Numbered from the stretch's first letter, positions 1 through 63,754 are shown. The stretch is DNA of 64,000 nt from an uncultured Gemmatimonadaceae bacterium (GCA_963829055.1 CAWHHI010000020.1:480001-544000), one strand, 5' to 3'. The notes: generated by a model from the letters alone, not told the origin. Numbers and translations: made by a program.

Positions 1-321
1 GCGCGCTGTTGGCGGCGCAGCGCGGCGTGTGAGCAACCAGACCTTCTCCCTCCGCTCTCGATCTCCGTCGCTGCGCAGCGGTATCTCCGTGCCGTCGGGG
101 ACGGCCGTGACGGGATAGTACGGCACGCGAAGGGAACGGACATTGGACCTTGGGCGCGGGTCGGGAGGGGAGGCTACGGTCGGCGCGGCCGGGCCCCACT
201 GCTCCGTTGGAGTCGGCACGCGTCTGATCGGCACGCAGCGAGCGCTCCACCGCGTTAGGCGGCGCCATCGTCGCCGCCGTCGCGCGCCTGCGGCATTTCC
301 GGCGCAGGGTGCGTGCGCCGC

Positions 322-1290
322 CTAGAAATCGATGCGAGTCACGACCCGAAATTGAGCCGCCTCCAGGTCGGGCACGGACCCCTCACGCAGGGCGACGCGC
401 GACCAGGCGAGGTCCCCGCCGATCGTGAATTGCGAGCGACCCGTGTAGAACAGACCGAGCTCGTAGATGCGGTAGCTGCCGCCGACATCCGCCGTGCGCG
501 CGGGGCCGTTCAGGCCGCGATACGCCAGCGAGAGCCCGATCGGGACGTCTGACAGCTTGCGGAAGTCGAATCCGACCTGCGCACCGATCGCCGTCAGCGA
601 CTCGTTGTCCGTCGCGGCCGCGTCCGCCAGCCCTGATTCGAGTGAGGCTTTGAGTCCCACCCATGGTCGGATGCCCCACGCTCCTCGAAGTCCGAGCGAC
701 CAGCGGTTGATCGGGACGACGCCGAGGAGGCGTTGTTTGGTGCTGTCGGTGTAGCCGCCGTCAGCAATCCCCTTGACGAACCCGTACGGATCGATCTCGT
801 ACGCTGAGGCGTGACGAACATCCCCGACCGCGGAGACGAGGAACTGCTGATTGTGCCAGATCGGGACGGTTGCGCCAAACGAACCGCCGAACGCCGCCAA
901 TGCGCCGCTCGCGACCACCGCCTCTACGCTCGTGCCCACGCGCCCGACGGCGTTCGCGCTCACGCGCAACGCGAGCCGACGCCCGAGCGACTTCTGGTAC
1001 TCGAAGTCGATGAGGAGAAATCCAATGTTGCCCTGAAGCGAATCCACCTCATCGCCGATGAGGTTTCGCACCGGGACTGTCAGATTGACGGCCGTGCCCC
1101 CACCGGTCGAGTTGAAAAAGTGCGTGGTCGCGAATGCATCGGGGACGACGCTCGACGGCAGGAACCGAAATCCGTCGAGGCAGTGACGACATGGATCCTG
1201 CGCAGCCCCGGAGCTCGCGCACAGCACGCCGAGCCCGACCGCAACGACCAGCATTCGATAGGACAGCCGGGACGACGGTCGCGCTCCCAT
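322..1290 (-). CDS. Secreted putative outer-membrane beta-barrel protein with N-terminal CxxC; paralog of 15053-16045
   Basis: ORF 322..1389; probable ATG at 1290 preceded by GAGGTG; signal-peptide-like segment, DPCRHCLDGFRFLPSS, amphipathic strands, C-terminal Phe (VTRIDF). Confidence 0.65.
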   Translation of the reverse strand: MGARPSSRLSYRMLVVAVGLGVLCASSGAAQDPCRHCLDGFRFLPSSVVPDAFATTHFFNSTGGGTAVNLTVPVRNLIGDEVDSLQGNIGFLLIDFEYQKSLGRRLALRVSANAVGRVGTSVEAVVASGALAAFGGSFGATVPIWHNQQFLVSAVGDVRHASAYEIDPYGFVKGIADGGYTDSTKQRLLGVVPINRWSLGLRGAWGIRPWVGLKASLESGLADAAATDNESLTAIGAQVGFDFRKLSDVPIGLSLAYRGLNGPARTADVGGSYRIYELGLFYTGRSQFTIGGDLAWSRVALREGSVPDLEAAQFRVVTRIDF

Positions 1291-1472
1291 GGCACACCTC
1301 GGGCGAAAGGCAATGCGCCGGGCGACAATGGGCGGCCGGCGCAGCACAACCGGAAACAATGCTGGTCGTTGCGGTCGGGGCCAGTACACCTTGGCCTAAC
1401 CCGCCTAACGTCCTCGGCTGACCGATCCGGTGAACCGATGCGGTGAACCAATGCGGGCGCGTCACCGATTGA

Positions 1473-1485
1473 CCGAAGGTACAAT
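1473..1485 (+). promoter_or_regulatory. Shared cluster operator CCGAAGGTACAAT
   Basis: TACCGT follows after 22 bp; upstream of the DUF4136-like operon. Confidence 0.65.
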
Positions 1486-1772
1486 GGGCGTGCATCGACA
1501 CCGGCCCTACCGTTCCGTCGAAGTCAGCCGGCGTGCACACGGCAGCCCGCGGTATGCACGTCGCGCGACGGGGCGCCTCGAGCGGAGCGGTCGGTCGCAT
1601 CGTGGCACACCTACCGGGATGTTCACGGGTGTCGCCTAACGAGATCCGCACTGGGAGCGAGCACGCTGATGGCACCGTCGCGCTCACGCCACGCAACCCG
1701 GCCCCCGAACGATCGTGGACCGGGCTCTCAGGCGCTCCGCACTCACCCCGCGGGACAGAGGAGGGAAGAACC

Positions 1773-2421
1773 ATGATCGGACGCTCGACCTTCGGCATCG
1801 CGTGCCTCGCGGTCGTGACCGTCGCGTGCTATCCCGGTCGCTCGGTCGACTCCACGAGCGAGTTCGTTTCGGTCACGACGCTGTACGACCAGGCGGCACC
1901 CTTCGAAGCGGTCAAGAAGTACGCCCTGCCGGATACAGTGCTCTACGTTCCGAAAAAGGAGAACGAGGAAGTTCCGGCCGCCACCCAGGCAGGCCATCCT
2001 GTCCGCGATCCGCACGAATCTGAACGCGCTCGGATGGACCGAAGTGACCAACGCGCGCACGACGCCGGTCGACGTGTACGTGGTCGCGGCCGTCACGTCC
2101 ACGACGTACGTCGGGTGGGTGTACGACTATTGGGGCTACTGGGGTTGGTACCCGTATTGGCCCGTGGGCTATGGCGCGCAGCACCAACTGGTACTACCCC
2201 CGCTACTGGTACGCGTACAGCTACACGACGGGAACGGTGGTGCTTGGCATGATCGACGGTCGGCCACAGGCCTCCAGATGGCCAGCGCGCTCCGCTCGTG
2301 TGGTCCGCGGGTGTCAACGGCGTGCTCGACTGATGCGAGCAACCAACATCACCATCGCCACGGCAGGCATCAACCAGGCGTTTCAACAGTCACCGTATCT
2401 GAGCACCGGAGTACGCAATGA
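1773..2421 (+). CDS. DUF4136-like lipoprotein (frameshifted; end approximate)
   Basis: GAGGG RBS and ATG at 1773; lipobox VVTVAC; KYALPDTV; Tyr/Trp/Gly-rich segment YWGYWGWYPYW; YSYTTGTVVLGMID and GINQAFQQSPYL lie in other frames. Confidence 0.65.
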
Positions 2422-3093
2422 TGAGACCGTTCGTCGAAGCACAGAGCGTGCACCGCGCGCGGCACGCGACGAGTGACGTGCGCGCTGTCCCTCCTCGTCC
2501 TCGTGGCGGCGCCCCTCGCCGGCGGGAACGCACAAGTCCTGACCCAGCCATACGTCGGAACCCTGTCGTACACGACGGCCTCACCGGCCGGCGACTCGAA
2601 GGACTTCGCCAACAACTTCAGCTGGCTCGGATTCACCGTCGAAGGCGACTGGTTCGCCCGCACGAACCTCTCGACCGGGTTCATCGTCGGCTGGCAGGAG
2701 ATCTACAACGAGAAGAACGGAGACCAGTTCACGTTCACCAACGGGGCGGTGACGGGTCGCACGTACGAAGCATCTGGAGGCACTCCCCATCCTCGCGCGC
2801 GCGCGCTACTGGACCGGAAGCCCGGGCGAGACGTTCATGCATTCGCCGGGCTCGGGCTGGGCACGTACTGGGTGAAGCAGACCGTCGACGTCGGCATCTA
2901 CACGGCCGATGAGAGTCACTGGCACTTCGGGGTCGCCCCCGAGGTGGGGCTCCTGATGGTGACCGGCTACGACGTCGGGTGGACGCTCAACGCCCGATAC
3001 AACTACCCGGTCGCCGCCGGCGACTACCTGTCCGGCACGAGCAACGCGTGGTCGTATTGGGGATTCGGGATTGGTCTGACCTACACGCATTGA
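2418..3093 (+). CDS. Small outer-membrane beta-barrel protein (internal frameshifts likely)
   Basis: ORF 2473..3093 with signal peptide, AGLGLGTY, WHFGVAPEVG and C-terminal WGFGIGLTYTH; directly follows the DUF4136-like gene. Confidence 0.6.
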
Positions 3094-3133
3094 CCGTCGG
3101 GCGGCCCTTCCCGCTGACTCACGTTAGGCACCC

Positions 3134-4140
3134 ATGTCATTGCTCCCGGTGCGCGCCCACCACGGCCTCGTCGCGGCGGCCATCTATCTTGCCGCCGCGA
3201 CGAGCGGCTCCGCGCAGAACCCTGATCTCATGCTGTCGAAGGCCGAGCGCGACAGCATTCTCAAGAACTACCACAACGTGTTTCCGATCTGGGGGCGCAA
3301 GGCGATCGAGAAGGGATTCGACCTGCCGTACCCCGCCGGGTTGGGCGTGAACTTCGTCTACGCGAGCCAGAACATCGATCTCACGAACCTCGGGCTCAGC
3401 ACCGGTACCAATCCGGTCGTGCCGGTCGACTTCATCAAGTTCGGCGAAACCAACGCGCCGGTGCTCACACCGAACCTGCGCGCGGATCTGTGGGTGTTGC
3501 CTTTCCTCAACGTGTACGCGTTCGGTGGCGTCGCGTGGGTCACAACGGACGTCGAAATAGCGGAGCCCGTGCCCTTCACCACGAGGGTGGAGCAGAGTGG
3601 TTATTACGCCGGGCTCGGCGGGACGGCGACGATGGGCATCAAGCACAACTGGCTGGCGTTCGACCTGAACACCGCATGGACGAAAACCGAGAAACTCGAC
3701 GAGCCGGTTCGTGCCCGCATTTTCGGCATCCGGCTCGGTCGCGCGCAGAAGCTCCAGGGCACGCAGCGGGTCGCGATCTGGCTTGGCGCCATGAAGCAAA
3801 CGCTCAAGTCCACGACCAACGGGAGCATCAACCTCAGCGAGGTCATCGCGGGCGGCGGCGACGGCGGCGGGACTTCGAGGACTACGAGGACAGCGAGTGG
3901 TACCAGGGCCTCCCTCCCGCGCAGCGGCGGGTCGTCGATGAGATCGTCAAGCGCATCCAGGGCATCGACCCTAGCGACGTCGTCGTCAATTATTCGCTCG
4001 ACAAGGCAACCGCCGACCCCTGGAACATGATCGCCGGCGCCTCCTACGACTTCTCCAAGACCTGGGCGGGCCGCGTCGAGACCGGATTCATCGGACGCAA
4101 GTCGGTGTTGTTGATGCTGAACTACCGATTCGAATGGTAG
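3134..4140 (+). CDS. Putative outer-membrane beta-barrel protein (frameshift near 3870)
   Basis: Signal peptide; PIWGRKAIEKGFDLPYPAG and RADLWVLPFLNVY; second frame ends PWNMIAGASYDFS...LNYRFEW. Confidence 0.6.
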
Positions 4141-4275
4141 CCTAACGCCGCCTGGATGGCGACGCGCTCGCCCGAGCCCCGCCGTCCGACGATCGCGCGC
4201 CGTACCTCAGCGCGGGACAATGCGGCACGCCCCGCGACTCGCTTCGACTCGCGTCGCTCGAATGACGACACGGGG

Positions 4276-4357: not shown

Positions 4358-5854
4358 ATGCAACGGGAGCGTAGTACGAACATCGAGTACGCGAACATCG
4401 AGCACGGGCTCCCCATCCCGCGGTCCGACAGGCGTATGCTCGAGCGCGAAGTTCCGGTTCCCACTGGACAGCTCTCCGCGGAGGAGGCGCTCGAGATCGC
4501 CGTCAATGCGTACGTGTACGCATATCCGTTGGTCATCATGGACGTGACGCGCGCCGTATCCACCAACACCGTGGGCGTGAACAACGCCCGGTTGCGCGCG
4601 CCGGTGAATCAGTTCGCCCATGCTCGATCATTCCCCGACGCGACGTTCACCGACGGTGTGCGCCCCAACGCCGACACGCTCTACTCGACCCTCTGGTTCG
4701 ACGTGTCCAGGGAGCCGCTGATCATCACGGTGCTCGACTCGGGGGGGCGGTATTACCTCCTTCCGATGCTCGACCTCTGGACCAATGTCTTCGCATCGCC
4801 CGGCAAGCGAACGACCGGCACCGGACCGCAGCGGTTCGCGATCGTCGGGCCGCAGTGGAGCGGGAAGCTGCCGGCAGGCGTGGACCTCGTACGTGCCCCG
4901 ACGTCGTCAGGCTGGCTCAGTGTGCGCATACAAACAAACGGCCCGTCGGACTATGAGGCCGTGCGCGCGTTCCAGTCCAGGCTGTGCGCGACACCCCTGT
5001 CGGTCTTCGGCACGACGTACACGCCGCCGCCCGGCAGGACCAGCCCGATCTCGGAGGCGTCGCCGGTGGAGCAGGTGGACGCGATGGATGCCTCGACATT
5101 CTTCGGGCGGTTCGCCGCGCTCACCGGCGACAACCCACCGCACGCGAACGACCACCCAATGGTGCAGCGCGTTAGGCGGCTCGGCATTCCACCCGGGGGG
5201 AGGTTCGTTCTGGAACGGCTGGCTCGCACATCGGCCGACGCGTTGGAGCAGGCAACCACGATCGCCAGGGAGAAGATCCTCGCGTACGCGCAGCGCGCGT
5301 CGCGACGCGTCAACGGGTGGTCGATGAGCGGGAACCCTATCGGTACCTACGGCACCGACTATCTGAAGCGCGCGCTGATCGCCCGCATGGGACTTGGCGC
5401 GAACACCGTCGAGGATGCGATCTACCCATCGGCGTTCGCGATGGCCGACGGAACGCCGTTCGAGTCGGCTGGGCGCTACGAGCTGCGCTTCGCAGCGAGC
5501 GAGCTCCCGCCCGCACACGCATTCTGGTCGCTCACGATGTACAACGATCGCCAGCTCTTCGCGGCCAACCCGATCGGCCGATACGCCATCGGGGATCGCG
5601 ATCCACTGCAGTTCGGTCCCGATGGGACGCTGACGCTCTACATCCAACGCGTGTCGCCAGGCACGGAACGAGAGACCAACTGGTTGCCCACGCCGCAGAC
5701 CGGCGGGTTCAGCATGAACCTTCGCATCTACTGGCCCGAGGCGAGAGCACTCGACGGCAGATGGGCACCGCCGCCCGTGAAGCGCATGGGCGCATCGGCT
5801 GAAGCGCTTCAGCGGAGTCAGGTCGTTCGACACGAATGCCTGCATGTCGCCTAA
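4358..5854 (+). CDS. DUF1254/DUF1214 domain protein
   Basis: AYVYAYPLV, RPNADTLYS, GRYYLLPMLDLWTNVF, AFWSLTMY, NWLPTP and LRIYWP motifs. Confidence 0.9.
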   Translation: MQRERSTNIEYANIEHGLPIPRSDRRMLEREVPVPTGQLSAEEALEIAVNAYVYAYPLVIMDVTRAVSTNTVGVNNARLRAPVNQFAHARSFPDATFTDGVRPNADTLYSTLWFDVSREPLIITVLDSGGRYYLLPMLDLWTNVFASPGKRTTGTGPQRFAIVGPQWSGKLPAGVDLVRAPTSSGWLSVRIQTNGPSDYEAVRAFQSRLCATPLSVFGTTYTPPPGRTSPISEASPVEQVDAMDASTFFGRFAALTGDNPPHANDHPMVQRVRRLGIPPGGRFVLERLARTSADALEQATTIAREKILAYAQRASRRVNGWSMSGNPIGTYGTDYLKRALIARMGLGANTVEDAIYPSAFAMADGTPFESAGRYELRFAASELPPAHAFWSLTMYNDRQLFAANPIGRYAIGDRDPLQFGPDGTLTLYIQRVSPGTERETNWLPTPQTGGFSMNLRIYWPEARALDGRWAPPPVKRMGASAEALQRSQVVRHECLHVA

Positions 5855-7760: not shown

Positions 7761-8677
7761 CCATGTCCACGTTAGGCATCATGCGCGCGGGCACCGTGGT
7801 GGCCGCCCTCACCCTGGGAACGGCGTGCAACCGGCCGCCGCAGGAGTTCGACACGCCGGAGGCCGCGGTTGAATCGCTGGTCGCCGCGGCGGAACGGTAC
7901 AATGTCCCGGCGCTCAAGAAGATCCTCGGGACGAAGGGTGCCGCCCTCGTGACCTCTCCTGACGCGGTGAGCGACAGCCTTGACGCCACGCGGTTCGCGG
8001 AGCGGGCACGAGTCAAGCAGCGGCTCGACTACGACTCGTCGAGGACGACGGCGTTCCTTGCGGTTGGAGATCTGGATTGGCCAATGCCCGTCCCGGTCGT
8101 GGAGCGTGCCGACAAGAAGTGGTCGTTCGATCCGGAAACGGGGACCGACGAGATCCTCCTCCGGCGCATTGGCCGCAACGAGCTCGATGCGATCGACGTC
8201 TGCCGCGGGTACGTCGAGGCGCAGAAAGCGTACGCCCTGGAAAAGCACGACGGCGCGCTGGTGAACCAGTACGCACAGCGCGTCATCAGCAGTCCGGGAA
8301 AGCACGACGGGCTGGCGTGGCAGGCCGCTGACGGCAGCTGGCAGGGTCCCGTAGGCCAGGCGGTGGCTCGCGTGATCGCGCAAGGGTACAGGAAGGACAT
8401 GCCCCCGTATCACGGTTACTACTTCAAGATCCTCAAGGGCCAGGGCCCCGCGGCGCCACTGGGACAACTGGACTTCGTGGTCGAGGGCGCGATGATCGGC
8501 GGCTTTGCGCTCGTGGCCGCTCCGGCCGAGTACCTGGTGACCGGGGTGAAGACGTTCATCGTCGGCTACGACGGCATCGTGTACGAGAAAGACTTCGGCG
8601 AGAAAACGCTCGACGAGTTCCGCGCGATGGAGCGGTACAACCCGGACTCGACGTGGAAACCGGTCGGGAACGAGTGA
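7757..8677 (+). CDS. DUF2950 domain lipoprotein
   Basis: ATGA overlap with the DUF3300 gene; FDTPEAA, RRIGRNEL, SSPGKHDGLAW, PYHGYYFKIL, GGFALVAAPAEY. Confidence 0.9.
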   Translation: MTMSTLGIMRAGTVVAALTLGTACNRPPQEFDTPEAAVESLVAAAERYNVPALKKILGTKGAALVTSPDAVSDSLDATRFAERARVKQRLDYDSSRTTAFLAVGDLDWPMPVPVVERADKKWSFDPETGTDEILLRRIGRNELDAIDVCRGYVEAQKAYALEKHDGALVNQYAQRVISSPGKHDGLAWQAADGSWQGPVGQAVARVIAQGYRKDMPPYHGYYFKILKGQGPAAPLGQLDFVVEGAMIGGFALVAAPAEYLVTGVKTFIVGYDGIVYEKDFGEKTLDEFRAMERYNPDSTWKPVGNE

Positions 8678-8714: not shown

Positions 8715-10409
8715 TCAGTCGCCGGGAATCGACGTCGGTGGGCGCATCGGGCCGCGTTGTGTCAACCGGACGTCGTCGCGCGACACGGCACCGCGAACCG
8801 GACCATCGACGCCCGCCACGTCTTCCATGTAGACGAGCTGCGTCGGCCGAGCGAACGCGCTGCCTGACGACTCCACGACTGTCGCGACCCGCAACAGGAA
8901 CTCCTCGCGTACGGCCAGAAACTCGAGGTAGTCCGAGGTCGACACGTACACGAAGAGCTCGATCTCGGCGGCGCGCTCGCCGAGGTCGACCAGCCGAGCG
9001 CGCGACGTCTTGGTTTCCAACCTGGGGTTGTCGGCAATCAGATCGCGAATTCCGCCGAGTATCGATCGCAGTTGCTCTGCGCTCGTGCCGTACTGCAGGT
9101 ACAGGCGAGTCTTCATCAGGATCTTTGCGCGGGTCGCGAAGTTCTCGACGCTCGACCCTGACAACGTGCCAGCCGGGATCGACAACAGCGTCTGATCCTC
9201 CGTCCGAAGTCGAATCGACCGCAGTGTGATGCCTTCGACGACGCCCGTTCGATTCGAGATGATGCACAGGTCGCCGACGGCAAGCACTCTGTCGCTCAGT
9301 AGAGCGATTCCGCCAAGCAGATTCTCCACGGTCTTCTGCGCGCCGAGCGCGATCGCGATGCCCCCGATACCAAACCCGGCGAGCGCCGTCATGGTGTCTA
9401 CGCCAGCGACCGTCAGGATCGTCAGGATGGCCAGCACCAGGATGAGCCCCTGGAACAAGCGTTCGGCGAGCAGCATGAGCGATCGCGTGCCGGTTTGCGA
9501 TCGGCCATGGACCAGGCCGCGAGCGTGCTCCATCGCCAGCGACAGCATGCGGAGGAGCAGCCACGCCACCGCGACGACCGTGACGACCGCGGCGACGTGC
9601 GCGTAGCGGAACCGGAACGCCAACGGCAATCCGATGAGCGGCGTGAGCACGTAATAGTGAATGACGTCAGCCACGATGACGATCATCGGCCACCGAAGCC
9701 CGGCATACCACACATCGAGACGGTACCGCCGTCCGGGCTCGAGCCTGGTGCGCCGTACGAAGCCGACGAGAACGGCCGACAGTAGGCGAAGCACGAGCAC
9801 CGGGATGATGATCGAAGCGGCCAGCAGGATCCATTGCGCGGCCGAGACGCCGAGCACCGAGCGCCTAACGAGCGGCGCCGGCATCACGCGTTGAGCCCAG
9901 GACTCGCCGATCGATCGGTACAGCGCCGGAACCTGGGACAGCGTCTCGGTGGAGATCAGCCAGATGGGACCCGCCTGCGGGTCGGTGACGCGCACCAACG
10001 CGATGTCCACCAGACGGTCGCCGATGACGAGCGGCCCCACGCGCTCGCGGTCAGCCGGGAGTCCGTCGTCCAACTCGCCATCGGGTCCGCCGCTGATAGT
10101 CGCGATGGGCTGGACGAAATGGCGGTCCATCATTTCACTCAGGGCCCGCGCCAACGCCTCGGCATTTCTCGCTTGCGAGCCCCTGAGCTGCAGGTACCTC
10201 GCAGCAGAGGCGAAATCGCCGCGATCCACCGCGCGCGTGAACCCGGCGATCGTGCCCCTGGGAGCGTCGCGTCCAAAAGGATCCTCGACTTGTGGCGGAG
10301 GCGTGCTCGGCGCCTGGGAGCTCGCGGCGCCTCGGATCTGGGCGACGCTCGGGCCGGCGAACGCCACCATCAGCAGGAGAGTCTTGAGCACCATGGCGCC
10401 GGCCGTCAT
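8715..10409 (-). CDS. MscS-family mechanosensitive channel with periplasmic N-terminal domain
   Basis: DPFGRDAPRGT; LAGFGIGGIAIALGAQKTVENLLGG; GVVEGITLRSIRLRT. Confidence 0.9.
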   Translation of the reverse strand: MTAGAMVLKTLLLMVAFAGPSVAQIRGAASSQAPSTPPPQVEDPFGRDAPRGTIAGFTRAVDRGDFASAARYLQLRGSQARNAEALARALSEMMDRHFVQPIATISGGPDGELDDGLPADRERVGPLVIGDRLVDIALVRVTDPQAGPIWLISTETLSQVPALYRSIGESWAQRVMPAPLVRRSVLGVSAAQWILLAASIIIPVLVLRLLSAVLVGFVRRTRLEPGRRYRLDVWYAGLRWPMIVIVADVIHYYVLTPLIGLPLAFRFRYAHVAAVVTVVAVAWLLLRMLSLAMEHARGLVHGRSQTGTRSLMLLAERLFQGLILVLAILTILTVAGVDTMTALAGFGIGGIAIALGAQKTVENLLGGIALLSDRVLAVGDLCIISNRTGVVEGITLRSIRLRTEDQTLLSIPAGTLSGSSVENFATRAKILMKTRLYLQYGTSAEQLRSILGGIRDLIADNPRLETKTSRARLVDLGERAAEIELFVYVSTSDYLEFLAVREEFLLRVATVVESSGSAFARPTQLVYMEDVAGVDGPVRGAVSRDDVRLTQRGPMRPPTSIPGD

Positions 10410-11042: not shown

Positions 11043-11053
11043 GTCCGACCTCC

Positions 11054-12381: not shown

Positions 12382-12452
12382 CGGTCCTCCCTGCTCCGTG
12401 GTTTTTGGAGCGTTAGGCGATACTATGGTACACGCCCATGGCAATATCAGCA

Positions 12453-14290: not shown

Positions 14291-14430
14291 GGTAGTCCTC
14301 CATCTCGAATACGTTAGGTATCGTCTCGGATCAGCGCGCATGGGGAGCGAAAGCCGAGGTCGAGTCCAGTCCGGGACCGGTCCCGGACGTGGAGTGCGTT
14401 GGATGATTGTCGACTGCCAGCCGCGCGGCC

Positions 14431-51999: not shown

Positions 52000-53380
52000 T
52001 CAGAGGAACTCGAAGAACTCGGCGCGCTCCCAGTCCGACACCGAGTCACCGAAGGCGCTCGAGTCATAGTCGGCAACGGCTGCCCGGGCCTTCGCGACCT
52101 CGTGGCGCTTGACCGCCAGGAAGAGCTTGACGAACTCCTCGCCTAACGCGGCGCGCAGCGCTCCGTCGGCCTCGAACGCGTCGAGCGCGTCCTCGAGGCG
52201 CCGCGGCAGCGCGGTGACCCCGGGCAGGTCCCAGGCGATACCCCGCGCCTCGGTGGTCGGCTCGATCTTGTTCGCCAGCCCGTCGATGCCCGCCGCCAGC
52301 ACGCCCGCCATCACCAGGTAGGGGTTGGCGCTGCCGCATGGGATTCGGTTCTCGATGTGCGCGTTGCCGTTGTCGAGGTCCTTGATCCGGAACGCCGCGC
52401 TCCGGTTCTCCACGCCCCAGGTGATATTCGTCGGCGCCATCGAGTAGACCTTGTAGCGCTTGCCGCAGTTCACCGTGGGCGCGGCCAGCGCGGTCAGCGC
52501 CGTCGCGTGGGCCATCTGGCCACCCAGCCACCATCGGGCGACGTCGGTCAGCGTGCCGGACCGTCCGGCAAAGGCGTTGCGCCCCCGCTTCACGTCGAGC
52601 AGGCTCTGATGGTAGTGGCAGCCGTTGGCCGACTGGTCGGCATAGGGCTTCGTCATGAACGACGCCATGTAGCCCTGGCGCTGGGCGATCTCTTTCACGC
52701 CGGTCTTGAAGGTAAAGGCGTGGTCCGCGGCGTCGATGCCGATCGCCGGCGCGAAGTTGATCTCGAACTGTCCGCGGCCGGACTCGGCGTTGGCGGTGAT
52801 GACGTCCACGCCCGATTGCGATCATCCCGCGCACGACCTCGAACACGAACGCCTCGTCGAAGGCGTTGCGGATGGTGGAGAACATCTGCACCCCCGGAAA
52901 GACCGGCTGCCGGGTGGCGCGGTCGACCAGGTAGAACTCGTACTCGAAGCCGGAGAGGAGGCGATAGCCCATGGCCTCGAGCTGCTCGAGGAGGGCGCGC
53001 GCCACCGCGCGGGGCGCGGCCATCGCCGGCCGGCCGTCCAAGTGATACGGCTCGCACAGCAGCCGCGCCGTCCTGTCGGCCCACGGCAGCACGCGATAGG
53101 TGCTGAGGTCGGGACGGATCCTGGCGTCGGCGTAGCCGACTTCCTCGAGGTACCCAGTCCCGGTGGGGATGCCGAACTGCGCGTCGACGCCGAGCAGCCC
53201 GAGCACGAAGTTGAGACCGGACTCCGCGAAGTGCCGCACGTGGCGGGCGGGGACGATCTTCGACCGGGCGATCCCGTGCGTGTCGGACTGCTCGAAGCGG
53301 ACGAAGTCGACCTTGTCGGCCGCGATGCGGCGCTCGAGGGCGTCCAGGGGATCGGCAGCGCGCCGGCGGCGAACGGGCAT
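52000..53380 (-). CDS. Glutamine synthetase family protein, possibly a gamma-glutamyl-amine ligase (frameshift near 52815)
   Basis: DTHGIARSK, GFEYEFYL, ESGRGQFEI, FMTKP, NGCHYHQS, ENRSAAFR, ENRIPCGSANPYL. Confidence 0.88.
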
Positions 53381-55025
53381 GGGGCCTCCTATCACCAGGG
53401 CTGCCGGGTACTGTGGGCACCCGGCCGGGGCAAGTCAAGGCGAGGAACAGCGGCGGGCTCACGCTGCCACGGCGATCAAAGCGAAGACCCGCGTAGGCGG
53501 CTACTTGGTCGACCCTTTCTCCGCGCCGTGCAACGGGGACACAGCGGGAAAGTTACCTAACGAGACCTGCCCCAGATGGAAGATGAAGCAGGACGCCACC
53601 GATCAGCTGTTCCGGGGCGAGCCGTTCCGGATCGTGATGCGGAAGGCGCTCGCCACTTAGCAGCTGCGGCCGCCGGATCGCGGGGCGTCCCGCTCCCAGG
53701 CGGCTCCGGTTCGCCAGTGGGGAACGGGAACATTCAGGTGCGTCCGTAGCACTGTGTCTCGCGGGAGCGCGTGAGGAGGTTCGCGCCCCTGCCACCGCGC
53801 TGCCAACGAACCGGCGCCACGTTGGCGCCGCCGGAGTGCACGCGGGTCGCCGGCCGCGCCTGTTGTACCGTAGTCGCCGCGGCCAATGGCAGCGCGCTAG
53901 GCAGGCCGACCGGCCGGGCCGCCGGGCGGGTCAGAGGGGGATCAGCGTCACGGGCTCGACGTCGAACACGATTGTGCCGTCCGGCCAGATCCGTCACACC
54001 GAAAGCGATGGCCGCGTTAGGGTTGCCGGAGTTGTGACGGATGTCACGGATAGAATACCGGGAGAACGGCCCCGGTCACCTCCGGCTTCTTTCGCTTTGT
54101 TCGCATCCCGTAGACCTCGGTGATAACCCCGGAGACGGTGGACAATAAACCGCATTGGAGTCGTGGGAATAGTCGCGCTGCTGCTAACCGGCTGCGCCAC
54201 TGGAATCATCGGACGAACACAGCAAGTGGCGCTCGTCTCGGCGCGGCTTGTCGTCCCTCCATGATGCGTATCGGCCAAACGCCGCCTCGAAGTCCTTCAT
54301 GTGGAACGGTGGCTCGATGTCGTACCTGTCTGGTAGCGCAAGCCATTTCGGATCAAACTTCAGCACTTCTCGACGTTGGCCACGAACGCCGGGACGTATA
54401 ACGCGCGCGGGCTGGCCACCTTGAACAATGCAAGCTGTGTTTGCGCGTGACAGCCTCACATGTAGCTCGCTTGACAGCGGGCCACTCTGCTCGCGAGGCG
54501 AATGCCGCCGACGCGACACGCTTGAGGTCGGATCACGACTCGGCCTGTCGCTCGTTGAGGGACGCGTCGGCGGCGCTGAACGCGGCATCAGCGTTTCGAC
54601 TTTGCGACGCAGTCGAGCTCGGCGTGCGCAATGGGCGAATTGAACGATCGCGAAGAATCCAGCTTGACCGGGTGGGGCCGTTCCATTAGCGTAGCGTGCC
54701 ATTTGTTTACTGCTTGCACCGACGTTGGTGTGATTAGCAACGGTGTCGCCGCCACTGGTTCTGTCCTCCACAGGTACGCTGATGCCTGTATCGAGGTACT
54801 ATAGCCGCGTGGCGCGCCGGGTAAGCCGACTCACGCGCCCTTTCCGCATTTCTCACTAAGGCGACTTAGGGCGACCGCGGTTGGGGAGTCCTCCCCCGTG
54901 ATACGCCGAGCGATGTCAGGCTCCGCAGTTCGGCAACGCCGCGCCTCTGCACGGGCGACGGCGCTGTCATTGTTCGGTGATCGATCGCATAAGGCGGTGA
55001 CGGACGCCTAACGCCGCCGCGCGGG

Positions 55026-56324: not shown

Positions 56325-56710
56325 ACGGTCCCGATGGCCAGCCCCGACCGGTAGACTAGACGCTACCGGGCAGGGCTTGGCCTCATCGAATGGGAAATGC
56401 TGTCCCCGCCTAACGAATGCTGGCTGGAACGGCCGGCGCTCTCGCCCAACGGACCCGAGGAACGCCCGCAAGGTCCGCGTGATCGAAGCGGCGCCAGATG
56501 TCGCGGGTGAAGGCGTCGAGCCGAGCGCGGTCCATCGTCGCCACCATGTCGCACCACACGTTCACGACGATCCGCGGCGCCGGGACTCGACATCGTGAAC
56601 GCCTCCATGATTGCGATGCGGACGCCGTCGCGTATTTCACAGCATTGCACACCTCATGTACGTTCGCGGTCGCGATTTTTCACTATGAGCCAAGAAAGGT
56701 ACGGTTGCGG

Positions 56711-56742: not shown

Positions 56743-56826
56743 CAAACCAGAATGTTGCCATTGATGTTGCCATTACGCGGCCGCGCGTACGAGCGACCGG
56801 TCCACGTAAGTCGTTGTCGCACAAAG

Positions 56827-56898
56827 AGGCGCCGGCCGGAATCGAACCGGCGAATAGCGGTTTTGCAGACCGCTGCCTTACCACTTGGCTACGGCGCC
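56827..56898 (-). tRNA. tRNA-Cys (GCA); CCA not encoded
   Basis: Reverse complement GGCGCCG TA GCC AAGTGGTAA GGC A GCGGT CTGCAAA ACCGC TATTC GCCGG TTCGATT CCGGC CGGCGCC T folds as a cloverleaf. Confidence 0.96.
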
Positions 56899-56958
56899 GT
56901 AAGGACTCTCAAGCTATTGGCCCGCTTGCTTGTTCTCAAGCCACGCCGTTGCGCCTCG

Positions 56959-59900
56959 TCAATTCTTCACGACGACGCTCGCCGTCCCGCTCTTCCCCTC
57001 GCTCGTCGCCGTGACCGTCGTCTCGCCCTCTCTCTGCGCCGTCACTATACCGCTCTGGGTCACCGTCGCGATCTGTATGTTCGAGCTCGACCACGCCACC
57101 GTTCGCCCCGTGAGAGCATTCCCGAGCGCGTCCCGGAGCGTCGCCGTGAGCGTGCCCGTACGCTGATTGTCCCTGTCACGAAGGTTGAGCGGCGACGGCG
57201 TCACCGTCACCGTCGCCACCGGCGCCGGCACCACCGTGACCGTCGCCGTTCCGCTCTTCCCCCCTGACGCTGCCGTGATCGTCGCGCTCCCGGGCAGGAG
57301 ACCCGTGACCACGCCGGCCTGGGTTACCGACGCGGTAAGCGGCTTGTCGCTCGACCACGCGACGGCCTGTTCGGCCATCACGCTGCCGTTCACGTCGCGC
57401 ACCGTCGCTGTCAGCGTGGTCGTCGCCGCCACACTCACGCTCGCCGTCGGCGGCGTGACGGTGACGCTCCCCACGGCCGGCGGTGCGACCGTGACAGTCA
57501 CCGTTCCCGTTCTCCCCTCGCTCGTCGCGGTGACCGTCGTGTTCCCGGCACCGACGGCCGTGATGAGGCCTGCTTGCGTGACGGTCGCGATGTTGGTGTT
57601 CGCGGAGCTCCACACCACGGCGCGGCCGGTGAGCGCGTTGCCCTGCGCGTCGCGTGGGGTGGCCGAGACCTGCTGGGTGCCGCCGATCGTCAGGTTGGCG
57701 GTGGTTGGAGCCACGACCACCGTGGCCACAGGCACCGCGGTCACGGTCACCGTCGCGGTGCCTGTCTTTCCTTCGCTCGTCGCGGTGATGGTCGTGCTGC
57801 CGGGCGCGACGGCGGTCACCGTCCCGTTAGGCGCCACCGTCGCGATGCCGGTGTTGCCCGAGGTCCACGTCACGGCGCGACCCGTGAGCACGGTGTTCCC
57901 CGCATCGCGAGTCGTCGCGGTGAGCGTCCCCGTCTGCCCTACCTGAAGTGGCAGTGTCGACGGAGCCACTGTCACCGTCGCCACAGCGGCTGGAGGCGGC
58001 GCCGTGACGGTGACGGTCGCGGTGCCAGTCTTTCCCTCGCTGGTCGCCGTGATCGTCGCCGATACCGACGCCGACCGCGGTCACGGTCCCGTTAGGCGCC
58101 ACCGTGGCGATCGCGGTGTTGCTCGAGCTCCAGGTAACCGCGCGACCGGTCAACACGTTGTTCGCCGCGTCACGGGTCGTCGCCGTCAGCGTTCCGGTCT
58201 GACCGGTCTGCAGCGGCAGCGTCGTCGGTGCGACGGTCACCGTCGCCACCGCGGCCGGGGGCGGGGCGGTCACCGTCACGGTTGCGGTCCCGGTCTTCCC
58301 TTCGCTCGTGGCGGTGATCGTCGCCGTCCCAACAGCCACCGCGGTCACGGTCCCGTTAGGCGCGACGGTCGCGACGGCAGTGTTGCTCGATGTCCACGAG
58401 ACGGCGCGGTCGGTCAGCACGTTGTTCCCGGCATCGCGCACGGTCGCGGTCAGGTTTCCGGTCTGCCCCGTCTGTAACGGGAGCGTTCCTGGTGCGACTG
58501 TCACCGTCGCGACCGGCACCGCGGTCACCGTGATCGTCGCCGTTCCGCTCTTGCCCTCGCTCGTCGCGGTGATCGTCGCCGTGCCGGGCGCGACACCGGT
58601 GACGACGCCCGCGTTGGACACCGTGGCGACGCCCGTGTTGCTGCTCGACCACGTCACCGCACGCCCGGTGAGCGTCGCGCCGTTGGCGTCGAGCGTCTGG
58701 GCCTGCAGCGTCGTCGTCTGACCCACGGTCACGCTCGCGGTCGGCGGCGTCACGTTCACGCTCGCCACCGGCGCCGGCGTCACGGTCACGGTCGCGGTGC
58801 CGTTCGTTCCCTCGCTCGACGCCGTGATCGTCACGGTGCCGGCCTTGAGACCGCTCACACGTCCGGTGCTCGAGACCACGGCGATGGCCTCGTCACTCGA
58901 GCTCCACCCGACGAGCCGCCCCTGCAACTCGGCCCCGCCCGCGTCGCGGACACTGGCCGAGAGTTGGGTGGCGCCGCCCACGGGCACGGTCGACGTCGGC
59001 GGGGTCACGACGACGCTCCCGACCGGCACCTGCCTAACGGTGACGGTCGCCGTGCCACCACGCCTTCGATGTTCGCGAAGATGATCGCGGTACCGGGCGC
59101 GAGGGCGGACACCGCCCCGCTCTGCGAGACCGTCGCGACGCTGGGCGCGCCGCTGGACCACGTCACCGTGCGCCCGCCAAGGTCCTGGCCGTTCGCTGCC
59201 TTGGCGGTCGCGGCGAGCTGCACGCCCTGACCGACGACCACGTTAGGCGCGTTCGGCGTCACGGTCACACTGGCGACCGGGATCGGCGTCACGGTCACGG
59301 TCGCCGTGCCGGTCTTGCCTTCACTCGTGGCGGTGATGGTCGTCGAACCGGGTGCGACTCCGGTGACGAGTCCGCTGGCCGATACCGTCGCGATGGCCGT
59401 GTTGCCGCTGGTAAACGAAACGGGTCGGCCCGCCAGCACGTTGCCCTGATCGTCGGTCACCTGCCCGCTCAGCTGCGTCGTTTGCCCGACGACGACGTTC
59501 GCCTGCCCCGGCGAGACGATCACCGAGCTGACCGGCTTGGGGCTGACGGTGATGCTGGCCGTTCCCGTCTTGCCCTCGGCCGCGGCCGTAATCGTCGCGC
59601 TTCCCGGCGCGATGGCGGTAACGAGGCCGGTGGACGACACGCTCGCGACGGCGGGTGCGCTCGTGGTCCACGCGACGACGCGACCCGCGAGCGCCGTGCC
59701 TGACGCATCGCGTGGCTCGGCACTCAACTGCGTCGTCTGGCCGGTGACGAGGGAGCTCGTACTCGGCGTCACGGCAACCGACGCGACCGGGACGGACGTG
59801 ACGGTGACAGTCGCGACCGAGTTCTTCCCCTCAGCGGTGGCGGTGATGATGCTGCTGCCGGACGCGAGCGCCGTGACGAGACCAGCCGAGTTGACGGTCG

Positions 59901-60393
59901 CGACGGTCGCGTTGCTCGTCGTGAACGTCACCGGTCGGCCGTCGAGCGCGTTGCCCTGCGCGTCCAGCGGCTGGGCGCTGAGCTGCATGGTCTGACCGAC
60001 GAGCAGGTCACGCGTCGTGGGCGTGAGCCTAACGCTGGCAACGGGTGTCGGAACGACGCTGACTTCGGCGATCGCGCTCTTTCCCTGCGCGCTCGCCGCG
60101 ATCTGCACCGTTCCGGTCGCCACCCCGGTAACGACGCCCGTGCTGGACACGGTCGCGACCGCGGGCTTTCCCGTCGCCCACGCGATCTTCACACCCGCCA
60201 ACGCTTTGCCCGACGCATCGAGCGCTTCGGCGGTGAGCGGTGCCGTCGACCCGACGGCGACTGTCGCCTTGGATGGCGCGATAACGACGGAGGCAACCGC
60301 GCTGCCGTCAGGGTCGAGTGAGTCGCTCTTGCAGGACAGGGCCGCGACGACGAACGCCGCGAGCCACCAGGTCTTCGATTGTAAGGACCGCAT
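56959..60393 (-). CDS. Surface lipoprotein with 13 bacterial Ig-like (Big_2-type) repeats (frameshifts near 59060 and 58065)
   Basis: Lipobox ALSC; repeated VASVxVTP...WSSS...VATV...G.ATITATSEGK.GTA units across three ORF pieces. Confidence 0.9.
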
Positions 60394-62292: not shown

Positions 62293-62357
62293 TGGATCCT
62301 CTGAGAGCTGACATGCGTCGACTTGCCTTGGGTACGTATGCGACGGCGATGCTTCGA

Positions 62358-62379
62358 TAATTAGCCAATTCTCTAATTA
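62358..62379. promoter_or_regulatory. AT-rich inverted repeat TAATTAG-N8-CTAATTA, probable operator
   Basis: Lies between the divergent starts at 62292 and 62470. Confidence 0.55.
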
Positions 62380-62469
62380 AATCAAGGTCGCAGCCGCGGG
62401 TAGGCTCCGGGCCTATCTTGTTCCGGGAACAGGCACCGGCACTTCACGCCAACTCCTCGATGAAGCAGC

Positions 62470-63444
62470 ATGCCCGAGACGCTCGCTGACCAGTCGCTCG
62501 TTTCGCACGCGCAGATGATCGCTGCGCGCGACGTGATCCGGTCGCGCCTGCATTACACGCCGTCGATGACGTCGGCGTACCTGTCCGATCGCATTGGTGC
62601 GCCGCTCCACCTCAAGCTCGAGCTCTTCCAGAAGACGGGATCGTTCAAGCCGCGTGGCGTGCTCAACCGTCTAGCGAATCTGACGGAAGCCGAGCGTCAG
62701 CGGGGGCTGATCACGTTGTCGGCGGGTAACCACGCGCAGGCCGTCGCCTGGGCTGCTCGGGAGTACGGTGTGCGGGCCACCGTCGTGATGCCGACGCGCG
62801 CGACACAGGCGAAGGTGGACGCGACGCGCGGCTACGGCGGCGACGTCATCCTCACCGATGGCGATCTGTTGGCGACCGCGCACGAGCTGCAACGCGCACG
62901 CGACCTGACGCTCATTCATCCGTTCGATGACCCGTTCGTCATCGCCGGTCAGGGAACGTTAGGCCTGGAGCTGCTCGAGCAGGTGCCGGACCTCGAGACG
63001 GTGGTCGTAGGGGTCGGAGGCGGCGGGCTCATCTCGGGTGTCGCGGCCGCGATCAAGGCGCTCAGGCCTAACGCGCGCGTCATCGGCGTCGAGCCGGAAG
63101 GCGCGCCGGGCATGACGGAGAGCCTGCGGCGCGGCGAAGCGGTGCGACTCGATGCCGTGAATACGGTGGCAGATGGACTCGCCGCTCCATTCGCGGGTCG
63201 TCTCAACTACTTCCACGTGCGCGAGCTGGTGGACGAGATGGTGCTCGTGACTGATGACGAGATCGTGTCGGCCATCCCGATCCTCATCGAGCGCTGCAAG
63301 GTCGTTCCGGAACCCGCAGCCGCGGCGGCCGTCGCGGCGCTCCTGTGCGGCAAGATCCGCGTGGCGACAGGATCGACGACGGTCGCGGTCGTGAGCGGAG
63401 GCAATATCGATCGAGCGCGACTCCGATCCCTGCTCGGCACCTAA
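62470..63444 (+). CDS. Threonine/serine dehydratase family PLP enzyme without ACT domain
   Basis: LKLELFQKTGSFKPRG, SAGNHAQAVA, HPFDD, VGGGGLISG, SGGNID. Confidence 0.93.
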   Translation: MPETLADQSLVSHAQMIAARDVIRSRLHYTPSMTSAYLSDRIGAPLHLKLELFQKTGSFKPRGVLNRLANLTEAERQRGLITLSAGNHAQAVAWAAREYGVRATVVMPTRATQAKVDATRGYGGDVILTDGDLLATAHELQRARDLTLIHPFDDPFVIAGQGTLGLELLEQVPDLETVVVGVGGGGLISGVAAAIKALRPNARVIGVEPEGAPGMTESLRRGEAVRLDAVNTVADGLAAPFAGRLNYFHVRELVDEMVLVTDDEIVSAIPILIERCKVVPEPAAAAAVAALLCGKIRVATGSTTVAVVSGGNIDRARLRSLLGT

Positions 63445-63490
63445 CGCACGTCGACAGGATTCCCGCTTCCGACAACCGAAACAGCAAACG

Positions 63491-63754
63491 CTACGGCAAC
63501 TGCAACGGCAACTGCAACTGCAGGACAGGATGGCCAGGATTGGCAGGATTGAGAAGATGACCGCTTCGGCGTCGGGAGCGTGTCGCCGGGGCCTAACGAA
63601 TGAAGGAACACATCTCGGGGAGAGTGGCGTCCCGAGCGGCCGTTCCCCTCATTCCGGGCTCGTTGCGGGAGGGGCCCTTAAGTGCGACACGGAGGCTCTG
63701 TTCAATCCTGTCCATCCTGGCCATCCTGTCAGGCCGTTGCCGTTGCCGTTGTAG
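63491..63754. repeat. Composite inverted repeat built from GCAAC and CAGGAT submotifs (REP/MITE-like)
   Basis: Left arm 63491-63553 resembles the reverse complement of right arm 63701-63754. Confidence 0.75.

Follow-up and report, generated by a model that had tools for sequence, protein, structure and literature searches.

A strand-symmetric, evenly spaced octamer resembling DNA uptake sequences in genomes of the Gemmatimonadaceae

Genomes from part of the bacterial family Gemmatimonadaceae contain a highly iterated octamer, GCCTAACG, that acts as a feature of the DNA itself: its borders are sharp, it is symmetric between strands and evenly spaced, it is conserved with turnover, and it is restricted to a lineage. 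We tentatively read it as an uptake or self-recognition word comparable to the DUS of Neisseriaceae and the USS of Pasteurellaceae, served by a putative reader, and from the sequence comparisons below we give this reading a probability of roughly 0.4. The word was noticed in a window, the whole analysed stretch of 64,000 bp, taken from a metagenome-assembled genome of a soil bacterium of this family (G000; 7,784,024 bp, 20 contigs, 66–67% GC). An earlier note on the window had proposed a lineage-specific DNA signal that matched no described system. Both points stand, given that enrichment occurs in only part of one family and that a literature search found no description of the word.

Results

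In the window, CCTAAC/GTTAGG hexamers number 58 (strand split 28/30), the heptamer CCTAACG occurs 53 times on both strands (24 on +, 29 on −) against 3.5 expected from dinucleotide shuffles (shuffle maximum 9), and 43 of these heptamers are GCCTAACG against 1.06 expected (maximum 4). The manual counts of the earlier note (about 58 hexamers split about 30 versus 28, about 53 heptamers, mostly octamers) were accurate, all 22 of its example coordinates are correct, and most CTAA/TTAG tetramers do fall within the hexamer (58 of 83).

The copies span 253–63598. On the + strand the octamer lies at 1403–1410, 1634–1641, 4140–4147, 9863–9870, 13317–13324, 21095–21102, 36229–36236, 39015–39022, 47615–47622, 47873–47880, 50278–50285, 51865–51872, 52141–52148, 55006–55013, 56408–56415, 59032–59039, 60027–60034, 63066–63073 and 63591–63598. 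On the − strand it lies at 253–260, 3122–3129, 5170–5177, 7770–7777, 12411–12418, 13441–13448, 14722–14729, 18944–18951, 21756–21763, 28156–28163, 28209–28216, 34110–34117, 34609–34616, 39589–39596, 40902–40909, 41987–41994, 43747–43754, 44086–44093, 45861–45868, 57825–57832, 58090–58097, 58354–58361, 59241–59248 and 62957–62964. The heptamer alone is found at 16886–16892, 23742–23748, 44717–44723, 53556–53562 and 63440–63446 (+) and at 14312–14318, 14930–14936, 32987–32993, 41496–41502 and 54015–54021 (−), and five further hexamers lie at 1395, 5850, 16643, 43382 and 56721. The word also forms stop codons at the two places previously named: 5852–5854 is inside the variant GCCTAACA, and the TAA at 63442–63444, inside the variant ACCTAACG, ends a PALP-enzyme gene (62470–63444). 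The copy at 60027–60034 reads GCATAACG in related strains from two public runs (60029 C>A), the copy at 62957–62964 occupies the same codon column in the nearest relative's ortholog (L094), and an independent public run yielded a contig that matches 62998–63105, and with it the copy at 63066–63073, without difference.

Across G000, GCCTAACG occurs 5,004 times (2,457 forward, 2,547 reverse), and the shorter forms CCTAACG and CCTAAC occur 6,391 and 7,103 times. By raw count it ranks 31st of 65,147 8-mers, and its z-score is the highest of all 8-mers under both Markov-1 (131 expected, 38-fold enriched) and Markov-3 (258 expected, 19-fold). The 5,275 confidently called genes hold 2,929 copies, compared with 117–147 in ten synonymous-codon shuffles and 28 when the word's own codons are left out of the pool (103-fold), so that the enrichment survives the codon-preserving check proposed earlier; 68% of all TTA codons in these genes sit inside the word. 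The core is CCTAAC, with G favoured over A at either side, and outside R-CCTAAC-R no flanking consensus was found among the G000 copies. One-mismatch forms pooled reach 1.7-fold against 103-fold for the exact word (summed codon-null rows), the three most enriched being ACCTAACG, GCCTAACA and GCATAACG. Variants at letters 2 and 7 fall to 0.16–0.37 of expectation, with all three alternative bases depleted and not one transition, and the near-match GCTTAACG is strongly depleted (2 copies against 52 expected). Corresponding drops from perfect to one-mismatch forms are 92-fold in Haemophilus and 82-fold in Neisseria, as given in PMC1939737.

We assign a negligible probability to an artefactual origin of the word, or to its being a side effect of composition, codon preference, a family of repeats or some protein motif. 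The assembly does look long-read, with genes split as if by indel errors, but the enrichment holds under Markov-3 and both codon-preserving nulls, the copies lack conserved flanks and stand in four frames and between genes, and the word is present in the assemblies of six other species and in the independent-run contig, while the foreign segments within the G000 assembly lack it. These controls refute such readings, including the basecalling artefact considered in the earlier note.

Placement is independent of frame, as had been claimed. All four stop-free frames are occupied in G000 genes, in sense as CCT-AAC (809 copies) and xGC-CTA-ACG (548) and in antisense as xCG-TTA-GGC (1,146) and GTT-AGG (426), and the two stop-making frames hold none; the sense to antisense ratio of 1,357:1,572 gives no transcription-direction bias. 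Density is 1.02 per kb in short intergenic gaps and 0.57 per kb in genes, and GCCTAACG contains 171 of the 663 TAA stops and 147 of the 1,401 TAG stops; copies therefore accumulate at the lowest-cost places. Replichore skew is absent on either side of a terminus-like GC-skew switch in contig C16 (159/201 and 234/230), which agrees with the earlier view that the word behaves like uptake sequences or HIP1 and not like Chi or KOPS.

The copies are more evenly spaced than chance. Their index of dispersion is 0.75–0.78 at 2–5 kb against 1.05–1.23 for five equally frequent 7-mers, the share of gaps below 200 bp is 6.4%, compared with 15.3% under Poisson and 15.7–16.7% for the control 7-mers, and long gaps are few. 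Mutual repulsion extends only about 200–300 bp, a range shorter than expected for a rule of one copy per kb-sized fragment, and it may instead mark how much DNA a bound protein covers. No enrichment was seen for inverted pairs like those of DUS terminators (39 versus 31 pairs at 50–150 bp). According to PMC7811141, a relatively even spread of USS at about one per kb is an expected outcome of uptake-driven molecular drive.

We compared 57 ortholog pairs of G000 and the congeneric G001, which total 71.5 kb and are 74% identical in nucleotides. Sites in common account for 22 of the 55 words of G000 and 22 of the 46 of G001, against 13–14% of same-phase control octamers; retention is thus about three times that of the controls, and about half of the copies are species-specific. 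At unshared copies the other species is mostly 3–5 letters away. Dispersed copies sit in ungapped alignments and are therefore substitutions, not insertion scars. In a second word-rich genus, copies occupy different columns of the same gene. The six other congeneric species carry 2,501–5,112 copies each (assemblies of 260–1,170 contigs). The trait is patchy, with at least 1,000 copies in 24 of 151 family genomes, and no enrichment was found among 92 genomes from elsewhere in the phylum.

Three foreign-looking G000 segments of 31–50 kb contain no copy of GCCTAACG. By contrast, a tailed-phage contig on which terminase, portal and holin genes were found has 19 copies in 15.2 kb, five of them in the portal gene, and an integrative element of roughly 15 kb in a word-rich genome has 0.8 copies per kb. 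Full word density on these two elements is simpler to understand with an intracellular reader than with uptake. The word could accordingly be an intracellular self-mark or architectural site, read by a DNA-binding or tracking protein and kept by selection at about one copy per kb on every replicon; we consider this a possible but less probable explanation, for which a Chi-like nuclease-attenuating signal, a mark-sparing defence system or a nucleoid protein covering about 200 bp would be candidates. Besides the phage contig and the element, it would account for the spacing, where short-range exclusion and the scarcity of long gaps would reflect steric footprints together with the need to cover the DNA, and for the patchy, graded distribution, which suits a reader gene gained and lost. 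Genes of G001 that lack a G000 ortholog hold 0.65 copies per kb, about as many as shared genes (0.75 per kb), so that all cell-resident DNA appears to be marked. However, the phage word is a nine-letter dialect, GCCTAACGA, oriented with the phage genes, unlike in G000, and the contig may therefore belong to another host group.

Chi (RecBCD/AddAB), and KOPS, SRS and the TraB TRS of Streptomyces plasmids, which are polar words for FtsK-type pumps, are likewise asymmetric, 5–8 bp long and over-represented on chromosomes, and a translocating machine recognises them on double-stranded DNA. Chi, KOPS and SRS show replication skew and only mild enrichment, whereas GCCTAACG is unskewed and enriched 38–103-fold; to our knowledge, no Chi or KOPS word without such skew has been described. 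Against a Chi role in particular, RecC is missing from all five genomes examined, and the AddAB-type PD-(D/E)XK nuclease domain is missing in word-rich G062 and found in word-poor G120. The FtsK gamma domain occurs once per genome in rich and poor genomes alike, with a second G000 copy inside a foreign segment. We know of no nucleoid protein with a strict 8-bp site enriched 100-fold.

Among uptake genes, ComEC, a PilQ-type secretin and four type IV pilin genes were found, together with a weak ComEA-type match in G000 (35 bits). The two word-poor relatives examined have ComEC, secretin and HHH_3 proteins to the same extent, FimT/GspH-type pilins are distributed without regard to the word (18 of the 24 word-rich genomes, 112 of all 151), and no ComP_DUS homologue was detected in three of three word-rich genomes.

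Methyltransferases fare no better. The C5 family (PF00145) is found in 6 of the 24 word-rich genomes, compared with 38 of all 151, and is missing from all three sampled g1 genomes (G000, G001, G004), PF01555 is missing from word-rich G000, G053 and G062, and PF02384 is weak in G062 and was not found in G000. All seven g1 genomes have the D12 class (PF02086), which also occurs in word-poor G007, G009 and G120 (8 of 24 word-rich against 77 of 151 overall), and all 21 relatives have an Eco57I-type protein, whether word-rich or word-poor. These results bear on a mutational or repair drive without any reading function, in which a methyltransferase and a VSP-like mismatch-repair partner, or another context-specific repair bias, would convert near-matches into the word. 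Such a drive has been proposed for HIP1, an octamer at about one per kb that is frame-independent and lineage-specific in cyanobacteria, palindromic and linked to methyltransferases. GCCTAACG shares the length, density, frame independence and lineage restriction of HIP1 but is asymmetric, and none of the families examined tracks it. Conversion could deplete near-matches such as GCTTAACG and the letter-2 and letter-7 variants, and the word is present in every sequence class. Yet a site-by-site bias predicts no repulsion between neighbouring copies, the depletion at letters 2 and 7 extends to every alternative base, and new copies lie several letters from the other species' sequence, which makes this drive very improbable.

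The word also matches the integron core site, as the earlier note had seen: with the attC/attI consensus boxes R'' RYYYAAC and R' GTTRRRY, GCCTAACG equals the attC R'' box plus the next G in 8 of 8 letters, in G000's own integron, in those of relatives and in unrelated arrays. The uptake reading leaves this identity unexplained. In cassette arrays of relatives 41 of 48 attC sites start with the word, as do 38 of 52 in arrays of a viral contig collection (47–64% GC), both shares being biased upward because the loci were located by searching with GCCTAACG. The G000 integrase gene IntI (C20:208041–208958; 265.7 bits, cut-off 265) is adjoined by attC-like sites that start with the word (hairpin folds z −4.7, −2.4, −0.3), and integrons are very common in the family (IntI over cut-off in 88 of 151 genomes). 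IntI or a related tyrosine recombinase might thus read the word as a double-stranded attC/attI R box, or a reader, possibly an uptake receptor, might have evolved to recognise the cassette R box. We regard this link as unlikely. IntI is equally frequent in word-rich genomes (14 of 24) and overall, at 58%, and was not found in ten word-rich genomes of 88–99% completeness. Unlike attC, the dispersed copies are single 8-mers in ordinary genes with no partner box or hairpin, form no attC-like inverted pairs, are not tied to IntI and arise by substitution. Word-poor relatives hold large cassette arrays whose attC sites contain GCCTAACG, so that having integrons is not in itself enough to cause the enrichment. 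Variants point both ways: the three most enriched in G000 are also the commonest R'' variants of non-relative arrays (2, 2 and 3 of 52, which are small numbers), whereas GTCTAACG, the chief R'' variant of relatives' arrays (6 of 48), stands at 0.2-fold in G000.

Discussion

Of the options raised in the earlier note, the methylation or repair-driven and the recombinase ones find no support, which narrows the list towards an uptake-type or other protein reading. Our preferred explanation is a double-strand DNA recognition word that would be bound by a sequence-specific protein of the lineage, with copies arising by point substitutions wherever coding permits. The likeliest reader would be the DNA-uptake machinery of natural transformation; word-bearing DNA would be preferentially bound and imported, and its recombination would spread and maintain copies about every 1–1.5 kb through molecular drive, whether or not selection contributes. 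We infer both the uptake process and the receptor from the pattern of the word.

As described in PMC7811141 and PMC1939737, DUS and USS are likewise short non-palindromic words, enriched tens to hundreds of times and found about once per 1–1.5 kb, on both strands, in many frames and in spacers. They too are lineage-specific, absent from foreign DNA, sharply bounded between perfect and one-mismatch forms and relatively evenly spaced. The word differs from them in being 8 bp long without a flanking consensus, in showing no excess of inverted pairs and no ComP homologue, and in having the spelling of an integron attC box. Our literature search found no report of uptake sequences in this phylum. 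With about 5,000 copies written against the codon habits of its genome, GCCTAACG resembles the "self tags" by which Neisseria and Haemophilus mark DNA for uptake.

Results

The octamer GCCTAACG, with the core CCTAAC (hereafter the word), is over-represented in the source genome to a real and striking degree, and the excess is a signal at the DNA level. The 7.78-Mb assembly, in 20 contigs, holds 5,004 copies (2,457 forward and 2,547 reverse), along with 6,391 of CCTAACG and 7,103 of CCTAAC in a whole-genome count. The earlier note had proposed a genome-wide 8-mer count against Markov models and codon-preserving shuffles, and the enrichment stays under both. Among all 8-mers the word has the top z-score under a Markov-1 model (131 expected, 38-fold) and a Markov-3 model (258 expected), and by raw count it ranks 31st of 65,147 despite the TAA inside it. 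The codon tests used 5,275 confident genes (5.14 Mb) called by GC3 periodicity, in which there are 2,929 copies; ten synonymous within-gene shuffles leave 117–147, and a shuffle with the word's own codons kept out of the pool leaves 28, an enrichment of 103-fold. In these genes the word accounts for 68% of TTA codons and 21% of CTA codons.

Within the window, which spans C20:480001-544000, the earlier manual tally proved accurate: there are 58 CCTAAC/GTTAGG hexamers (28/30 by strand) and 53 CCTAACG heptamers (24 plus, 29 minus), with 3.5 heptamers expected from dinucleotide shuffles, and 43 of the octamers, with 1.06 expected. Most CTAA/TTAG tetramers (58 of 83) do fall within the hexamer, all 22 example positions are correct, and the two stop codons credited to the motif are real and are located in the variants GCCTAACA and ACCTAACG. 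The window copies sit in ordinary chromosomal genes, encoding sensor kinases, Ser/Thr kinases, a LysR regulator, glutamine synthetase, a beta-lactamase-fold protein, a PALP enzyme and several DUFs.

Information content across the copies is limited to R-CCTAAC-R, falling to about zero past the single base that flanks the core on each side; the base 5' of the core is G in 79% and A in 12%, and the base 3' of it is G in 90% and A in 7%. In REP and MITE repeats the conserved element extends past the core and usually includes a hairpin. The word carries no information outside R-CCTAAC-R and is therefore neither a REP nor a MITE. In genes, copies occur in each of the four stop-free reading frames and in neither of the two that would create a stop. 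Genes carry 0.57 copies per kb, compared with 1.02 per kb for short intergenic gaps (1.41 in convergent, 0.97 in tandem and 0.71 in divergent ones), and among stop codons the word supplies 171 of 663 TAA and 147 of 1,401 TAG. The higher intergenic density and the use as stop codons indicate that copies gather where their cost is least.

Orientation does not follow transcription (1,357 sense and 1,572 antisense copies), and adjacent copies share the same orientation in 2,890 of 5,610 cases. The replichore-skew test suggested earlier gave no skew: contig C16 has a change of sign in GC skew and gene orientation at about 550 kb, with 159 forward and 201 reverse copies ahead of that point and 234 and 230 beyond it. 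KOPS/SRS motifs have strong polarity that switches at the terminus, and that reading is rejected here for want of any polarity switch. An apparent all-plus listing in genomes of other genera (G119, G161, G061, G086) had hinted at strand polarity there, which direct counts over 400 kb of G119:C1 reject (105 forward and 130 reverse, both present in each 20-kb bin).

Close neighbours are scarce among the copies, and so are long gaps. Pairs less than 200 bp apart number 300 vs 763 expected, pair classes of 500–1,500 bp are in excess (2,596 vs 2,018 expected) and classes of 3–10 kb are depleted. The index of dispersion is 0.75 at 2 kb, 0.78 at 5 kb, 0.90 at 10 kb and 1.17 at 20 kb, compared with 1.05–1.23 at 5 kb for five equally frequent control 7-mers, and gaps below 200 bp make up 6.4% of word gaps vs 15.7–16.7% for control 7-mers. 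This spacing is what a process satisfied by a single copy per stretch predicts, and also what a bound protein with a footprint predicts; a mutational bias acting site by site does not predict it.

Among the near-matches, three variants are enriched (GCCTAACA 35-fold, ACCTAACG 33-fold, GCATAACG 4.5-fold), and variants at letters 2 and 7 are depleted to 0.16–0.37 of expectation, GCTTAACG to 0.04. Summed, the one-mismatch forms stand at 1.7-fold, about 60-fold below the perfect word. For the uptake sequences of Haemophilus and Neisseria, drops of 92- and 82-fold to one-mismatch forms are reported (PMC1939737).

The possibility that the word is an artefact is rejected, given that the trait occurs in assemblies of other species, that the genome contains word-free segments and that a contig from an independent run carries the word. 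Near-identical DNA was found in 20 runs from 16 studies, and the independent-run contig spans window 62998-63105, one word included, with zero differences. Two public runs contain related strains with A for C at window 60029, which changes GCCTAACG to the 4.5-fold-enriched GCATAACG. In Logan contigs from four runs, short pieces over an 8-kb stretch, one of 40 listed differences (276 in total) lies in a word, a figure that is no measure of conservation and no evidence that the word is absent from any place.

Three segments, each at a contig end, hold no copy: C6:5,440-55,038 (L085-L087), C11:1-44,055 (L088-L090) and C6:591,808-623,330 (L091-L092). About four word gaps of at least 9 kb are expected over the whole genome. 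The first segment starts after a DDE transposase; its genes include housekeeping ones (shikimate pathway, trp genes, amidase) and a further copy of FtsK, a protein present once in each of four other genomes. On account of these housekeeping genes and the second FtsK the segment looks like DNA from another organism, and it was probably either merged into the assembly or recently acquired.

Genes are apparently split or fused at window 52000-53395, 18381-20627 and 40013-40789. The glutamine synthetase covers profile positions 88-340 only, in a 269-aa frame, a 748-aa window frame has two LysR HTH domains, a MauG-type peroxidase is truncated and the D12 methyltransferase of this genome lies in two pieces at C8:134909-135647. 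The split and fused genes are likely indel errors of long-read assembly. Window 56802-57068 and 63477-63743 reach summed contig depths of up to 428 and 400, vs about 5–20 elsewhere, in all four public runs, and are probably repeats or sequences common to many organisms. Other repeats of the genome are about 767 copies ending in ...CTCCGCTCGGAATGACA, about 378 copies containing GGAGTCGAGGAATCG with a conserved 3' extension, and tandem (GGGAATC)n arrays (240 matches).

The ortholog alignment envisaged in the earlier note was run against 378 kb of the congener G001, with 57 pairs aligned at codon level (71.5 kb, with 74% identity over all nucleotides and 56% over third positions), and dispersed copies arise as substitutions. 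The two genomes share 22 words, with 33 found in the source genome alone and 24 in G001 alone; of the control octamers taken in those two phases, 13–14% are identical, or 28% where amino acids agree. Unshared copies mostly oppose sequence differing at 3–5 letters, with amino-acid differences in 45 of 57. The PALP gene of the window has one word position in common with its nearest relative, and another word-rich genus has its words in other columns. Taken together, sharing above controls, the unshared copies and the differing columns mean that the word is both maintained and continually created, independently in separate lineages. G001 genes with an ortholog in the source genome carry 0.75 words per kb and those without 0.63–0.65, and no DUS-like core-gene bias is detected at this sample size.

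The closest public relatives of a protein from the window come from Gemmatimonadaceae and Gemmatimonadota MAGs. All seven genomes of the source genus hold 2,501–5,112 copies. Among 151 sampled family genomes, 24 are word-rich (at least 1,000 copies, up to 1.3 per kb), 38 have 61–999 and 89 have 60 or fewer, usually under the reversed-word control (hand count). Outside the family, no enrichment is seen in any of 92 genomes from eleven further families of the phylum; the highest count, 91 copies, is under that genome's own control. These tallies include the depositor-restricted G021, G047, G048 and G146 (family) and G205 and G234 (phylum), none of them word-rich, and no conclusion depends solely on these genomes. 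The trait comes and goes from genus to genus, and in one case inside a genus, g54, whose genomes have 3,896, 4,141 and 66 copies.

The word has a counterpart in integrons. An attC site has R'' and R' boxes, an imperfect inverted repeat 50–150 bp apart, folds as a hairpin and occurs in arrays beside intI. In word-poor relatives, same-strand runs of the word at steps of about 550 bp are integron cassette arrays, with attC sites of the form GCCTAACG...(T/C)GTTAGGC. R'' plus the next base reads GCCTAACG in 41 of 48 (relatives) and 38 of 52 attC sites, shares that are biased upward, the loci having been found via the word. When viral contigs were scanned for two words 300–330 bp apart, most of the stretches obtained were attC arrays, of unrelated GC content (among at least 120 stretches). 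The dispersed word is thereby identical with the widespread attC box in eight of eight letters, which is what keeps a link with integrons alive as an explanation.

The source genome itself has an intI at C20:208041-208958 on the minus strand (265.7 bits vs a model cut-off of 265; stretch L093, C20:190,001-210,000), and attC-like sites at C20:192696, 205101 and 207188 begin with the word and fold as hairpins. In this small integron the attC-like sites lie on the 3' side of intI, an unusual arrangement. The attC features are found in a few sites beside this intI and not in the dispersed copies, which are substitutions without a partner box. That the dispersed copies are themselves attC sites is rejected, with no excess of inverted pairs (39 vs 31) and no link to IntI, which does not track enrichment in the family sample (14 of 24 word-rich genomes vs 88 of 151 overall). 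Integrons are recorded in Gemmatimonadota and Verrucomicrobiota (PMC8618304).

A search for the gene that reads the word contrasted three word-rich genomes (the source genome, G053 and G062) with two word-poor ones (G120 and G007). Rich and poor are not separated in these five by PF01555, PF02384, PF00145, ComEC, HHH_3, secretin, FtsK_gamma, ComP_DUS, RecC or PDDEXK_1. The earlier note had looked to a methyltransferase, a ComP-like pilin or a recombinase that follows the enrichment, and none of those tested does so. HIP1-type words are palindromes with a cognate methyltransferase, whereas the word is asymmetric. C5 methyltransferases occur in 6 of 24 word-rich genomes vs 38 of 151 overall, D12 methyltransferases in 8 of 24 vs 77 of 151, including word-poor genomes (and in 7 of 7 of the source genus), PF01555 in none of the three word-rich genomes tested, and PF02384 is not found in the source genome and weak in G062. 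The asymmetry and these counts speak against a HIP1-like, methylation-linked word, and the idea that methylation or repair drives the word through mutation was likewise tested and found wanting, as no methyltransferase family tested tracks it. An Eco57I-type protein is universal in the relatives (21 of 21) and does not track the word either. Conservation of this methyltransferase-domain protein of about 1,000–1,100 aa in all 21 genomes sampled from the order is unusual for a restriction-modification gene.

Chi sites have an orientation bias with replication and are read by RecBCD or AddAB. A Chi reading is rejected on the lack of replication skew, on RecC (0 of 5 genomes) and on the AddAB-type domain PDDEXK_1, which is present in the source genome and in word-poor G120, weak in G053 and not found in word-rich G062. 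Transformation machinery comprises a type IV pilus or secretin, ComEA and ComEC. On this uptake side, ComEC, secretin and the HHH_3 protein are in all five genomes, word-poor relatives included. The source genome has four pilin genes on the type IV pilus side, and its ComEA-type match is weak. GspH/FimT pilins (112 of 151 genomes) bear no relation to the word.

Mobile DNA carries the word as well. The IMG/VR viral contig L202 (15.2 kb; 15,179 bp), a fragment of a tailed phage with terminase, portal and holin genes, has 19 copies, nearly all as the 9-mer GCCTAACGA on the coding strand and five of them within the portal gene, a dialect and an orientation rule that differ from those of the source genome. 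Among 80 of at least 120 viral stretches, word-bearing phage-like DNA is limited to L202 (17 solo copies) and the weaker L198, L208 and L214 (9, 7 and 6). No HK97-type capsid gene was found in the source genome. The AT-rich viral contig L222 (IMG/VR, 30% GC) has tandem units of about 108 bp at 9,234-10,169, each with GCCTAACGGCAATACGCGGCA, and these have no connection with the signal in Gemmatimonadaceae. G053, a complete word-rich genome, consists of replicons of 5.31, 1.11 and 1.04 Mb and a 20,952-bp contig, G053:C4 (L297). The first ~6 kb of this contig recurs at its end, which makes it a circle of about 15 kb whose assembly overlaps itself. With genes for a tyrosine integrase, a DUF5906 primase-like protein and an HTH_17 protein, it resembles an integrative element, and it has 12 unique copies (0.8 per kb); samples of the chromosome and megareplicons have 0.2–0.9 per kb.

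Discussion

We rank a word like the DUS and USS, serving in DNA uptake or self-recognition, first among the readings, with a probability of roughly 40%, because in its overall profile the word is closer to proven uptake sequences than to any other known class. As in those systems, one short, specific word is strongly over-represented genome-wide, occurs in either orientation and in several frames and spacers without replication polarity, stands at about one per kb with relatively even spacing, and is missing from three foreign-looking segments of 31–50 kb. It differs in that the ComP receptor of Neisseria has no counterpart (ComP_DUS homologue) in the three word-rich genomes contrasted. To our knowledge the USS receptor itself is unknown, so a novel receptor for the word may exist.

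Two rivals stay alive, also because no gene was found that tracks the trait. A reader acting inside the cell is consistent with the short-range exclusion of copies and with a phage and an integrative element that are word-rich. The link with integrons could take the form of a borrowed tag: some Gemmatimonadaceae would have a receptor tuned to the near-universal attC R'' box, most plausibly at transformation uptake, and would fish cassettes, with the box at every attC, from environmental DNA, their own chromosomes, plasmids and phages filling with the tag as a by-product. We hold this to be a long shot. If true, it would couple natural transformation with the integron cassette pool.

Among the matches listed for the word, full-text literature gave no description of it as a genome signature, and a full-text search gave no report of uptake sequences in Gemmatimonadota. 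We know of sequence-specific uptake or self-tag words firmly established in two proteobacterial families only. The on/off pattern between genera and once within a genus means that whole-genome phylogenetic profiling should be able to identify the reader gene, and since G053 is complete, with four replicons, and word-rich, there may be a strain that is tractable. The word can also serve as a strong host marker when phages, plasmids and mis-binned contigs are to be assigned. In Gemmatimonadota, one of the major phyla of soil, the genomic signature of uptake or self-tag words is seen undiminished. The identity with the attC box, if not chance, bears on cassette movement between soil bacteria.
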